The notes beneath the pieces are model-generated. The model made no database searches and was not told the origin of the DNA. It saw only the letters and a program-made list of their open reading frames with translations. From the NCBI GenBank assembly GCA_011389745.1, contig JAABTQ010000004.1:83007-147006 (forward strand): a DNA stretch of 64,000 nt, given 5' to 3'. This document shows positions 1,835-13,160 of this stretch, one piece after another. Position 1 is the stretch's first letter. The number at the start of each line of letters is the position of its first letter. Made by a program: the position numbers and the translations under genes. This DNA is from Desulfobacteraceae bacterium (GTDB lineage: Bacteria > Desulfobacterota > Desulfobacteria > Desulfobacterales > SKZT01).

Positions 1835-2035
1835 TTACATTGCATCCTTATCACTGGCTTCAATGGCTTTATCTATTTCCGCTTTCAACTGCGGAGGTAA
1901 ATCAGGAATATCAAGATTGAGAAATCCTTGAATGATCGACGAAACTGCTTCATCTTCCGTCAAGCCCCGGGACATGAGGTACATACTGTTGAGGTTAGAA
2001 CTAAATTTATGGTTGAGTTTCGCACAGGGAAGGCC
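1835..2035 (-). pseudogene. SufB/SufD-family C-terminal remnant
   Basis: Own translation: GLPCAKLNHKFSSNLNSMYLMSRGLTEDEAVSSIIQGFLNLDIPDLPPQLKAEIDKAIEASDKDAM*, with stop at 1835-1837. YLMSRG..EA....GF is the conserved extreme C-terminus of SufB/SufD. An in-frame TAA lies at 2036-2038 and no SufB body lies upstream. Confidence 0.55.
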
Positions 2036-2091: not shown

Positions 2092-2508
2092 CTATTTAGG
2101 TTCAGTAGGGTATCTTGACCGATTCCACTCGTGCCAGCCCCCTTTGAGGGCATAAACCTTTTCAAAACCTCTGTCTTTCATTTGCTTCGCCGTCCAGGCG
2201 GAGGTCCCCTCGCCAGGTCATGCGCAATACAAAATGTAGGTTTTTTTCAAATCATAATTAGAAATCCAATCTTTCAAATTAGCGGAATCTTCGTGAACAG
2301 CACCATTAATTTTTATGTCGCTTGCCCTCCAGTCACTCCCGGACCTGACATCCAAAAAAACAACATCAGAGTTATCCATCATTTCCCGGGCTTCTTCCTT
2401 GGTAATACGAGGAATTTCCGTTGCCGATATTTCATGCGATGTTGTGATCAGAATTGCCATCACAAACACCGACAAAATCATCAAAGTTTTTATATTGGTA
2501 ACTTTCAT
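2092..2508 (-). CDS. Exported single-domain rhodanese with in-frame UGA at 2218-2220 (candidate selenocysteine codon)
   Basis: Track ORF 2218..2508 has a signal peptide and ends ...KTYILYCA at TGA. The same frame continues PGEGTSAWTAKQMKDRGFEKVYALKGGWHEWNRSRYPTEPK to TAG at 2092-2094. That continuation is the canonical C-terminal half of a rhodanese domain. Confidence 0.6.
2197..2214 (-). promoter_or_regulatory. Candidate SECIS-like hairpin 4 nt downstream of the UGA
   Basis: RNA reads UGA CCU GGCG-A-GG GGACC UC-CGCC UGG. The stem is GGCG/CGCC plus GG/UC(C), with a bulged A and a G-rich apical loop. Confidence 0.35.
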
Positions 2509-2528: not shown

Positions 2529-3833
2529 TCAGGTGAACAGATTCTTCACAGGTTTATATGGTAAAAGTCTGCTGAAAATCATGGTTAAAATTGAAATTAC
2601 AATAAATCCGACAATAAAGAACAACGAAATCGTCATATCCGGGTCCGTTGCAATCAAAACAACTGCCCCCACAGCATATACCATGACAGCAAAAGATCCG
2701 GGCAACGTCAACCTTTTGTTTTTCTTTCCGCTTGAGTGAAGCAGTTTTCTTATCGCGAACGCATTGAAAACCGCATGCGAAATCAGCCATAGATAAAAAG
2801 CACTGCGAGTAACCGTTACGGTGATATCCTTTCCCGCCATCCCCGTGAGCAACATACACAGAATTCCTATAAATAAAATCATCATGACGGCATTTCCTCC
2901 AAGCATTTTCCTGTTCAATACAGGAAAAATTTGTTGGGATCTGACCATGGAATGAATTACAGCGGATACACCTGCCAGAAGTGTGTTGACGGAAGCAAAA
3001 CTCCCTGTAAGAATCGCCACCCCCATGATTTTACGACCGTTTTCTCCTGAAATGGCGCGTGCTGCAATGGAATGAGGGACGGTACTGTCCGCAAGACGTT
3101 CCAAAGGGACAAAATGGAGGGAAATCTGCCACCAAAGCAGGAATATGGCACCGGCGGTAACAAATGCCGCCATGAGTGAAAATGTTTGGGACCGTCGATT
3201 CTGCTGTACCGCGTCATGGTACACAGCCAGTTCGGCGGCCATAAAGAGCCAAAAAACCAATACCAGTGATCTCCAATCCACATAGGGCATGTGGAAACCG
3301 TTTTGATTTTCAAAAACCGAGTCGCCCCAGTTGGAATAACCCATAATCAATAAGAGCATCATGGCTCCCATAAATATCACAACCGATATTATCTGAAGTC
3401 TTTCGGATGCTGAAGGGTTTATGAAGTTGACAGCAACTATGAGAATAAGAAAACAGATGGAAAAAAGGAGATTTGGAAACCAGTATAAAAATATTTCGTT
3501 AAGGGCATAACCAGCCATGGCAAGGATGAGAGTGGAAACACCAATGCAAAACGGAACCAGTGAGGCGAGTTGCAAAGCCGTGAGAACCCATTTTGAATCA
3601 ATTTTTACATGTATTTTCGGGGCTTCGGAACCCGATTCATCGGGAAGCCGGGCATAGCAGTATGCAGTCCAAAGGTTGATTATGGCGACAATGGGAATTG
3701 TCCACAAATACCAGTGCCCCATCATCCCTGCGCTATTTCCCAAAACCACCAGCGACAACGGAGATATCATAAACCCCATAGCCATGCAGGTTCTTATCAG
3801 GAAGCTTTTTAGGGACACATTTTGTTTATTCAT
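2529..3833 (-). CDS. Polytopic membrane protein, APC-superfamily permease-like
   Basis: 434 aa with about 12 hydrophobic segments and a layout resembling amino acid/polyamine permeases. It ends 21 nt upstream of the rhodanese gene on the same strand. The family call is tentative. Confidence 0.5.
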   Translation of the reverse strand: MNKQNVSLKSFLIRTCMAMGFMISPLSLVVLGNSAGMMGHWYLWTIPIVAIINLWTAYCYARLPDESGSEAPKIHVKIDSKWVLTALQLASLVPFCIGVSTLILAMAGYALNEIFLYWFPNLLFSICFLILIVAVNFINPSASERLQIISVVIFMGAMMLLLIMGYSNWGDSVFENQNGFHMPYVDWRSLVLVFWLFMAAELAVYHDAVQQNRRSQTFSLMAAFVTAGAIFLLWWQISLHFVPLERLADSTVPHSIAARAISGENGRKIMGVAILTGSFASVNTLLAGVSAVIHSMVRSQQIFPVLNRKMLGGNAVMMILFIGILCMLLTGMAGKDITVTVTRSAFYLWLISHAVFNAFAIRKLLHSSGKKNKRLTLPGSFAVMVYAVGAVVLIATDPDMTISLFFIVGFIVISILTMIFSRLLPYKPVKNLFT

Positions 3834-3945: not shown

Positions 3946-5877
3946 TCAGCCTGCCTTCAGCAAGACAAAGATTTCTCCCTCAACAGATTTATCGTTTTCT
4001 TTTCGAAGCACAACCGGGTTTACATTGTCTATTTTAAAATGATATTTTTCACCAAGAGATTTGATGTAGCCTGAGCCATGAGCAAAACGTCCGGTGAATT
4101 GCAAAGTGTAGCCGTCCTCAGGATAGCTTTCAGTTGAAAAAATAAAGCAGGCCCCTGGATTAAGCCTTTTTTCGAGATTTGAAAACAAAGGTTCCAAATC
4201 ACCCAAATAAACAAAAACATCTGCTGCGATCACCAGGTCGAACTTCTCCCGGCATTCGCTTAAAAACTCATTTATTTCCGAAACATGCAACTGATTGTAA
4301 AGAGCTTTATTTTCGGCCACCTCAATCATGTCCTGAGATATATCCACACCAGTCATATGCCCCGAGATATCGCGAAAGATTTCGCCCGCCAAACCCGTAC
4401 CGCAGCCCAGGTCGAGGACTTTTTCATATTTTTTGTGTTTTCCGATCGAATCATCCAAAGCTTTTCTGAGAAGTTGCGGTGTCTTGTAGGCAAGATTCCG
4501 GGTGAGATGTCTGTCGAATCGGTTTGAATATTGATTAAAAAGTTCTTTTACGTATTCCGGCGGGGCGCTTTTGGGATTTTTTCCGGATAAAACAGCTGCC
4601 ATATACCTGGCGGAATGATTTCCGGAATCGAGCTTAGCAGTCTTTTGAAACGCTGACAGGGCCTTATCCATATGCCCCAGCTCCATCAAAGTACTTCCCA
4701 TATTATGATAGGCATCGGCATATTCGGGCATAAGTGATGCTGCCTGCTCAAAAGCAATCAGCGCTTCCTGAAGCTTACCCTGGGTTTTTAAAAGGATACC
4801 GATGTTTTGAAACACATGGGGATTATTCGGTTCAAGGGAGATGGCTTTTCCATATGCCTCGAAGGCCTCCTGATTTTTTCCTGCTGCGTTTAAGGCAACC
4901 GCTATATTATTATAGGTCTGCGGATGTTTCGGGTCTATTTCAATGGCCTTCTTGTATGCTTCAATGGCCTCTTTTATTCGGCCTTCACTTTTCAAAGCAA
5001 TACCCAGACTGTTATAAGCTTCAGCAAAGTCGGGTTTGGTTTCAATGGCTTTTTCAAACTCACCAATAGCTTCGGCCATCCTTTTACGGGCAAGCAGATA
5101 GTTTCCATAACGATGACGGGCTTCGGCTGAATCCCCGGAAAAAACTATCGCTTTTTGAAAAGCATTATCTGCCTCATGTTGTTTACCCGCCAATTCAAAG
5201 GCTGCACCCAGATTCTGATAGGCATGTGAATTTTCAGGATCTGTTTCAATACATTCTTTAAAGGCCCCGATAGCCTCCGGTATCCTGTTCTGGAAAAGTA
5301 ATGCTTTTCCCAACCGGTTACGGGTCTCAACCAAATCAGGTTTTATTTCAAGGAGTTGTTTAAAAACAGATATTGCCTCTTCCGGTTGATTTTGTTTTAA
5401 AAACACTCTACCAAGATTGTGGTAAGCGTCGATATATTCCGGATCCAAATCAATAGCCCGTCGAAAGGCATCAATGGCCTTGTCCGTCTTTCCCTTTCCT
5501 CTAAGCACTTTTCCCATCATATTATAGGTTTCCGGATTTTGGGGATTTACGGCAAGAGCGCTGTGAAAAGCATCCACGGCATCATCGAAATTGCCCATTG
5601 AATTTAGTGCAAGTCCTAAATGGTTATAAAAATAGTCTCTGTCCGGTGCACTTTGAATGGCTCGGGTAATTAATTCGGCCGCTGACCTGGGATTTTTGTT
5701 TTGATAATAAATACCACCGAGCAAATAAAGAGCATCCGGATTTTCCGGATCACAATCCAGCAGTTTTTCATACCGTGTCCTCGCTTCATTAAACTGGCCT
5801 GCCTGATGTGCAGCAACTGCGCGATCGAGCATATCTTTTAAGTTCATCTTTTGTTGTTTCCTGTTCGTGTTTTCCAC
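3946..5877 (-). CDS. TPR-repeat protein with C-terminal SAM-dependent methyltransferase domain
   Basis: Many 34-aa repeats follow the A..Y..A(L/I)...P pattern. The C-terminus carries VLDLGCGTGLAGE...DLVIAADVFVYLGDLEPLF, a class I methyltransferase signature. Confidence 0.8.
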   Translation of the reverse strand: MENTNRKQQKMNLKDMLDRAVAAHQAGQFNEARTRYEKLLDCDPENPDALYLLGGIYYQNKNPRSAAELITRAIQSAPDRDYFYNHLGLALNSMGNFDDAVDAFHSALAVNPQNPETYNMMGKVLRGKGKTDKAIDAFRRAIDLDPEYIDAYHNLGRVFLKQNQPEEAISVFKQLLEIKPDLVETRNRLGKALLFQNRIPEAIGAFKECIETDPENSHAYQNLGAAFELAGKQHEADNAFQKAIVFSGDSAEARHRYGNYLLARKRMAEAIGEFEKAIETKPDFAEAYNSLGIALKSEGRIKEAIEAYKKAIEIDPKHPQTYNNIAVALNAAGKNQEAFEAYGKAISLEPNNPHVFQNIGILLKTQGKLQEALIAFEQAASLMPEYADAYHNMGSTLMELGHMDKALSAFQKTAKLDSGNHSARYMAAVLSGKNPKSAPPEYVKELFNQYSNRFDRHLTRNLAYKTPQLLRKALDDSIGKHKKYEKVLDLGCGTGLAGEIFRDISGHMTGVDISQDMIEVAENKALYNQLHVSEINEFLSECREKFDLVIAADVFVYLGDLEPLFSNLEKRLNPGACFIFSTESYPEDGYTLQFTGRFAHGSGYIKSLGEKYHFKIDNVNPVVLRKENDKSVEGEIFVLLKAG

Positions 5878-12452: not shown

Positions 12453-12746
12453 TGGATGCGATGGGACTGCGATGCACCAATAATCCGGCTGGTTTATTGA
12501 CAGCAATTAAAAATGGGTCCCGGTATAGTATATCCAGTTGTTGTGAGATTATCATTTGTCATTCTTCGTTATTTTCACGGATAATTTTCCATGGCACAAC
12601 TTCGTCTTGCTCCACGGAATACAACTCTTTGCAATCTGAAACAACCTTATTAATCGCTTCGCCCTTTGTGCGCAATATTTAAGTATAGAAAGAGATCCAC
12701 AACTGTGATAATGATAATCAAATTTCAAATCCATGGAGGAGGCGAC

Positions 12747-13160
12747 ATGTCTAAAGAACCTAAAAGCAGTCAGGCTGACTCCGAAGAAACTTTTTCTTTA
12801 CTCAAACAGATTTTTGAAGAACTTATGCCTTTTGACAGATTGTTGGGGGTTAAGGTCGAAAATTTCACGGGAATTAACTGGGTTTCCGAAATTATCGACC
12901 ATGGGTTTATCCACTCCATCTATTCTTTTGACCCGAATAATATACCCATCGAGTTCAGTGCACCGGTTGAAAAACTTGATATCAGACGCTCTCCGCGAAT
13001 GGCCGACAAAAGCCCTTGTCAAAACGCCCTAAAGGGTTCTGAACCTCAGCCTGGACTTTGGCCTCCAATTTTGTATCCCACACCAAAAGAGCAACGGACC
13101 ATTTATCCTGGTGAGGGTACTATTCTGAATAAATCCGATTTTAAAATTAAATCTGAATGA
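12747..13160 (+). CDS. Hypothetical protein with a VOC/glyoxalase-like fragment
   Basis: ATG at 12747 is preceded by GGAGGAGG. The DHGFIHSIYSFDPNNIPIEFS block resembles the last strands of a VOC module; the remainder is unrecognisable. Confidence 0.35.
   Translation: MSKEPKSSQADSEETFSLLKQIFEELMPFDRLLGVKVENFTGINWVSEIIDHGFIHSIYSFDPNNIPIEFSAPVEKLDIRRSPRMADKSPCQNALKGSEPQPGLWPPILYPTPKEQRTIYPGEGTILNKSDFKIKSE

Follow-up and report, generated by a model that had tools for sequence, protein, structure and literature searches.

The gene at positions 2508 to 2092 of the window (the whole 64,000-nucleotide stretch of DNA analysed here) contains an internal UGA that, judged by comparison with its relatives, almost certainly codes for selenocysteine (Sec). 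Our full explanation, which we hold to be highly probable, is that the gene encodes an exported rhodanese of the NCBIfam family NF041203 in which the UGA at codon 97 is decoded as Sec with the help of a conserved hairpin. We favour the Sec reading because the product belongs to this family, the UGA is fixed within it, the sequence behind the UGA is under selection, Cys-containing homologues exist, and the hairpin covaries. A first-pass annotation of the window had proposed the gene as a candidate selenoprotein. The Sec reading is supported on each of these grounds, but the protein is not new, as NF041203 and published reviews already cover its CxU form. The features of the locus are listed in Table 1.

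Table 1. Features of the rhodanese locus, in window coordinates.
Feature	Position	Strand	Description and evidence
Complete gene of the predicted selenoprotein	2092..2508	(-)	138 codons, Sec at codon 97, then TAG; NF041203 member
41-codon tail after Sec97	2095..2217	(-)	Pfam match, fixed length, coding periodicity, synonymous-only changes
SECIS-like hairpin	2185..2203	(-)	covariation, suppressed synonymous variation, RNAalifold
In-frame UGA, read as Sec97	2218..2220	(-)	two residues past Cys95, in the active-site loop; C-A-U
Cys95 codon TGC	2224..2226	(-)	codon counts in family copies; alignments to 6pfz and 1qxn
Predicted Sec-type export signal	2422..2508	(-)	residues 1-29, MKVTNIKTLMILSVFVMAILITTSHEISA; basic N-terminus, hydrophobic core, AxA-like end
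434-aa divergent APC-fold permease (modelled)	2529..3833	(-)	neighbour survey, AF2 model, Foldseek

The minus-strand open reading frame begins with ATG at 2508 and extends to 2218, reading ...KTYILYCA and then TGA; the Ala96 codon GCA occupies 2223-2221 (-). Behind the UGA the same frame continues for 41 sense codons (PGEGTSAWTAKQMKDRGFEKVYALKGGWHEWNRSRYPTEPK) before TAG at 2094-2092. The first-pass annotation had described this frame, its stop, the tail and the resulting C-A-U motif accurately, down to the coordinates. It had also taken the continuation for the C-terminal part of the rhodanese fold, which was borne out by profile comparison. With Cys put in for the UGA, the 138-aa readthrough product matched the Pfam Rhodanese profile PF00581 as a complete domain (profile positions 1-101 of 102, E 1.5e-14, 54.7 bits against a gathering score of 22.2), whereas the match of the 96-aa ORF alone ended at profile position 69. 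The match is full-length only with the tail, which supplies the rest of the fold with the TSA helix, G-F, and YALKGGWHEW.

Against NF041203, the NCBIfam equivalog 'rhodanese_LYCAU, rhodanese-related (seleno)protein', the readthrough product (Cys for Sec) scored 163 bits at a cut-off of 115 (E 2.3e-48, model positions 3-126 of 126). The eponymous L-Y-C-A-U motif is present, the window reading I-L-Y-C-A-TGA. By these scores the gene is an ordinary, typical member of a family that is already catalogued. A CxU rhodanese selenoprotein was first predicted by Zhang and Gladyshev in 2005 (bSECISearch), the CxU form stands among the predicted selenoproteins of a 2022 review and a 2026 review (PMC13188914), and a study of Olavius algarvensis delta-symbionts reported eight genes of this rhodanese type together with a UxU variant (PMC1976440). 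The CxU rhodanese is therefore already known and not novel, and its status as a selenoprotein in the reviews is 'predicted'. What the present analysis adds for the family is a conserved SECIS core, an export signal and a frequent neighbour, a permease of the APC type.

The CxU rhodanese family is widespread in metagenomes from sediment, freshwater and other anoxic habitats, with 315 relatives retrieved in one scan. From these relatives 80 metagenome loci were kept and read through the UGA, as were three MAG loci (Desulfobacteraceae and 'delta proteobacterium') with 80%, 52% and 46% identity. In total 87 family copies were compared, the window included, with identities of 42-100%. At the Sec column every one of the 87 had TGA. 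For the Cys column, two residues before it, TGC was counted in 41 copies, TGT in 31 and TGA in 15, and the L-Y-C-A-U (CxU) motif was accordingly found in 72 copies, the other 15 being UxU.

The UxU form was seen at loci L027-L029, L035, L036, L048, L051, L054, L058, L059, L065, L066 and L080, and in second copies at L009 (about 4623-4709) and L017 (about 2569-2655). Two tandem copies of the family are present in each of L009, L017 and L069. In UxU genes both UGAs lie 6 nt apart and upstream of the same conserved hairpin, so that a single SECIS presumably serves both.

The first-pass annotation had suggested looking for orthologues with Cys or UGA in the column of the internal UGA, and both were found: besides the TGA copies, an exhaustive protein search with the 41-aa tail as query retrieved full-length homologues with a standard residue at this column. 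These comprised CxC homologues (P0036, P0054, P0073, P0077, P0092 and P0093), CxS homologues (P0060, P0070 and P0087) and single sequences with CAD (P0083), SAR (P0049) and CAW (P0034, with the codon TGG). Nine out of ten non-Sec homologues scanned scored above the NF041203 cut-off. For the CxC type the scan covered five sequences, leaving out P0077; P0036, P0054, P0073 and P0092 passed and P0093 stayed below the cut-off at 105.5 bits. Since Cys aligns with Sec inside one family, the column shows the classical Sec/Cys pairing. NF041203 is also passed by P0034, P0049, P0060, P0070, P0083 and P0087, in which the Sec column is occupied by Trp, Arg, Ser or Asp; in P0049 Cys95 is lost as well. Part of the family has thus abandoned C-x-U/C chemistry.

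A candidate SECIS element was sought in an ungapped, codon-anchored alignment of 78 distinct homologues. RNAalifold returned a single conserved stem in this alignment (columns 32-36/42-46), with 98.5% of cells paired, compensatory changes at four of the five pairs, and none of 500 shuffles matching it; slid controls were 21-63% paired. The covariation is visible in the codons themselves: where the Ser codon ended in U (AGU or UCU) the downstream Ala codon was GCA in 62 of 68 sequences, and where it ended in C (UCC or AGC) the Ala codon was GCG in 9 of 10. Within the stem, third positions had entropies of 0.27-0.73 bits, compared with 1.44-1.86 bits at four-fold sites of invariant residues elsewhere. 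The loop has the form N-G-[G/U]-N-N, and its G (G38) was invariant in 78/78 sequences even though the codon to which it belongs encodes R, G, S or W.

In the window the stem is formed by CGCC (2200-2197) and GGCG (2191-2188) around the loop UGGAC (2196-2192), with the invariant G at 2195, and it can be extended past a C.A mismatch (2201/2187) by the pairs U31-A47 (2202/2186) and C30-G48 (2203/2185). The conserved stem, below which no lower stem is conserved, has 4 bp here and 5 bp in most of the relatives; it starts 17 nt, and the apical loop 21 nt, after the UGA. The published bSECIS model describes a loop of 3-9 nt with G in one of its first two positions, an upper stem of at least 4 bp, a distance of 16-37 nt from UGA to loop and an MFE limit of -7.5 kcal/mol. 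The conserved hairpin fits this geometry in loop size, position of the G, stem length and 21-nt spacing. The energy of the minimal hairpin in the window (-6.3 to -6.4 kcal/mol) is weaker than the limit of -7.5, which may have been set on a longer segment; the same hairpin reaches -7.6 and -10.1 kcal/mol in the relatives L009 and L002, respectively. Its z-scores in the window were -1.82 (19-mer) and +0.15 (29-mer), and locally its CGCC arm can also take part in a competing fold of greater stability. We infer that the conserved hairpin is the SECIS element that would be bound by SelB.

The competing fold is the one that had been put forward in the earlier annotation as a candidate SECIS, a GC-rich hairpin (GGCGAGG/CCU-CGCC, 2214-2197) that begins 4 nt past the UGA. 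Although it can form in the window, it was rejected as a SECIS element and appears to be lineage-specific rather than conserved. Its z-score was -0.73, with 50 of 200 shuffles folding equally well; over the 78 homologues 55% of its cells were paired, and 445-500 of 500 shuffles equalled its covariation. Its loop also begins 10 nt from the UGA, nearer than the published minimum of 16.

Sequence alone cannot identify the residue that is inserted, and the UGA might instead be read through with a standard residue such as Cys or Trp by a near-cognate or suppressor tRNA, the hairpin then stimulating readthrough or having some other role. The homologue with Trp (TGG) at the column, the Ser, Asp and Arg members that still pass NF041203, and the energy of the window hairpin, which falls short of the bSECIS criterion, are all compatible with such decoding. 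We nevertheless consider it very improbable. The position of the hairpin, its loop size and its invariant G followed by G/U fit the consensus for SelB binding, and a column that alternates with Cys beside another Cys is the usual signature of Sec. The UxU forms would be hard to explain by leaky readthrough at two stops, and the relatives come from delta-proteobacterial lineages described as selenoprotein-rich.

Whether or not the residue is Sec, the codons past the UGA behave as translated sequence. The tail was exactly 41 codons long in all 80 loci with enough flanking sequence, and ended in TAA, TGA or TAG. Entropies at codon positions 1, 2 and 3 were 0.59, 0.52 and 1.29 in the tail and 0.84, 0.63 and 1.55 upstream of the UGA; beyond the terminal stop conservation collapsed, with an entropy of about 1.92 at each of the three positions. 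In four independent assemblies (one NCBI MAG and three from SRA runs) the gene encoded an identical protein and had TGA throughout. Their differences from the window amounted to nine distinct substitutions, every one a synonymous third-position change, and five of these fell in the tail. The frame was free of frameshifts and additional stops. Comparison of the copies thus shows the 41 codons past the UGA to be under purifying selection, in line with the argument of the first-pass annotation that such conservation is unlikely downstream of a genuine stop.

That the UGA is nevertheless a true stop, the product being a 96-residue truncated rhodanese fragment and the downstream DNA untranslated, is the choice gene callers have made in every database entry. 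TGA does normally terminate translation in this organism: it closes 13 of the 36 long reading frames in the window, so that UGA is not reassigned genome-wide. The 64-kb window also contains no Sec machinery: no selA, selB, selC or selD and no SelA, SelB or SelD signature motif were detected, ARAGORN reported no tRNA, and no Rfam family was found at gathering thresholds. Likewise, two scans for in-frame TGAs, which included Cys-adjacent TGAs near N-termini, yielded no second credible selenoprotein gene in the window, only out-of-frame noise. Untranslated DNA, however, would not hold a length of 41 codons in 80/80 loci, a coding periodicity and synonymous-only changes, and a 96-aa product would be missing the final third of the fold, to which the active-site loop and the GGW motif belong. 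We therefore rate termination at this codon as extremely improbable. That TGC or TGT, each one substitution away, was misread as TGA in sequencing or assembly, as the CxC homologues might suggest, or that the gene is a decaying pseudogene, has a probability close to nil given TGA in all 87 copies from independent metagenomes and MAGs and in the four assemblies of the same gene, the intact frame, and purifying selection on both sides of the UGA. Taken together, conservation of the UGA and the tail and the synonymous-only differences effectively exclude termination at the UGA, decay into a pseudogene and an error in base calling.

In public protein sets the family is represented without its active-site loop and the last third of its fold. 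A protein search returned 27 database homologues (P0001-P0027), all of which aligned only to the part of the query before the UGA, and the 13 intact sequences inspected all terminated at ...LYCA, so gene callers had ended them at the same codon. The truncation of all 27 entries at the Sec codon amounts to a systematic misannotation; the annotation needed is that of a 138-residue selenoprotein with Sec at position 97. One of the entries, P0004, carries the source label 'biopolymer transport protein ExbD'.

The description of the protein as exported in the earlier annotation is plausible as a prediction. The presequence reaches a Kyte-Doolittle maximum of 3.07 over 10 residues, and cleavage likely takes place before TEIPR, which would give a mature protein of about 109 residues. 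The layout is family-wide: a hydrophobic core was present in all 63 distinct family presequences, 97% had K or R among the first 10 residues, and in the examples inspected an AxA-like motif closed the presequence.

With regard to the active site, the position of the canonical rhodanese Cys depends on the alignment, as 6mxv places it at the Sec column while 6pfz and Sud (1qxn) place it at Cys95, with a two-residue gap in the loop. Cys95 was retained in 12 of 13 aligned sequences (the window and 11 of the 12 non-Sec homologues), and the Sec column varied. The assignment of Sec97 to the canonical catalytic Cys after 6mxv was dropped in favour of Cys95, which is better conserved and which both other structures support. 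Because of these alignments and this conservation, Cys95 is probably the canonical catalytic Cys, and Sec97 probably an added partner in a longer loop, C-A-U-P-x-E-x-T.

Following the established bacterial mechanism, a complex of SelB, GTP and Sec-tRNASec would bind the hairpin and deliver Sec to the ribosome at the UGA. The N-terminal signal would then take the protein across the cytoplasmic membrane, where Cys95 and Sec97 may act as a C-x-U redox pair that could form a selenenylsulfide. This idea follows from Cys95 being probably canonical and Sec97 an extra partner in a longer loop. Instead of serving only as the carrier of a sulfane-sulfur (or selenium) adduct, the protein might with such a pair resolve the adduct or reduce it.

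A gap of 20 nt separates the stop codon of the permease gene from the ATG of the rhodanese, which follows it in the same orientation, and because of this arrangement both genes are probably co-transcribed. In 37 of 61 assessable loci, among them L001, L004-L009, L011 and about 30 others, a permease homologue (28-64% identity) was the immediate upstream neighbour of the rhodanese and shared its strand; the remaining 24 had unrelated neighbours instead. The pairing is therefore suggestive but not obligatory. The window permease had no Pfam match even at E 10 and only a weak collinear match to an NCBIfam exporter of the YjeH type (27.6 bits vs a cut-off of 284); PF13520 was reached by 7 of 22 permease relatives, and a profile of the permease family found no match among PDB sequences. 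An AF2 model (pLDDT 78, pTM 0.83) compared by Foldseek retrieved AdiC (TM 0.73), KimA, LAT1 and ApcT with probability 1.0, TM about 0.7 and 13-17% identity. On the strength of this model the permease is assigned the APC/LeuT fold.

The apparent operon suggests that rhodanese and permease might handle a common small substrate across the membrane. They could form a dedicated two-component system for capturing, reducing and importing or exporting a chalcogen (selenium or sulfane sulfur), in which the periplasmic selenoenzyme would prepare the substrate for the permease, though we think this improbable. No specific high-affinity selenium transporter is known from prokaryotes (2026 review, PMC13188914), and such a system, if real, would fill this recognised gap. 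For experimental work, concrete handles are available in the SECIS core conserved across the family and in the permease that often neighbours the rhodanese.

On the other side of the rhodanese, SUF-like Fe-S genes follow in the relatives L084 and L001. A functional link between them and the rhodanese was considered unlikely, as the rhodanese is predicted to be exported and the window is without those genes. Compared with the collinear, 97-98% identical assembly GCA_011390975.1, the window lacks 1,828 bp at the junction 1985/1986. The missing segment (L084 10525-12352) encodes an ABC ATPase resembling SufC, together with the greater part of a 408-aa SufB/D (SmsB-like) protein, of which the ORF at 1835-1984 (-) is a remnant, a 49-codon C-terminal piece. 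The 80%-identical relative L001 retains the sufC-sufB region. Either a deletion specific to this strain or a collapse in the assembly accounts for the absence of these 1.8 kb. Elsewhere in the window, an ORF at 12666-13160 (+) of 164 aa had no Pfam match and scored 19.9 bits with an NCBIfam thioesterase model at a cut-off of 107.

Compared with known systems, the window gene has the single-domain size, the CxU motif and the one Sec of the NF041203 family, and nothing substantive sets it apart. The UxU variant of the Olavius algarvensis delta-symbionts belongs to the same family and has Sec in the same column; the difference is that the window gene keeps Cys (TGC) at the first position and therefore has one Sec instead of two. 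The rhodanese selenoprotein forms 1, 2 and 4 (UxxS, UxxG) and TsoB resemble the window protein in that they are of the rhodanese fold and have Sec in the active-site loop or close to it, but differ in Sec motif and position, and against the model for the rhodanese/DsbD fusion TsoB (NF045694) the window protein scored only 19.8 bits, compared with a cut-off of 805. Its hairpin resembles the bacterial SECIS consensus (bSECISearch; E. coli fdhF type), which likewise lies in the coding sequence directly 3' of the UGA, in its 5-nt loop, the G at position 2 followed by G/U, the 21-nt spacing and the 4-5 bp stem. Unlike that consensus it is very short, is without a conserved lower stem, and is weaker than the -7.5 limit. 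Finally, the Cys-type rhodaneses of solved structure, namely the tandem rhodanese 6mxv, Wolinella Sud (1qxn) and E. coli GlpE (1gmx), share fold and size class with the window protein, and sequence matches to solved rhodaneses of this type ranged from E 3e-15 to 7e-3. Their loop has six residues and one catalytic Cys, whereas that of the window family contains C-A-U, appears to be longer by two residues, and has an invariant Glu at a place that is basic in canonical rhodanese loops.
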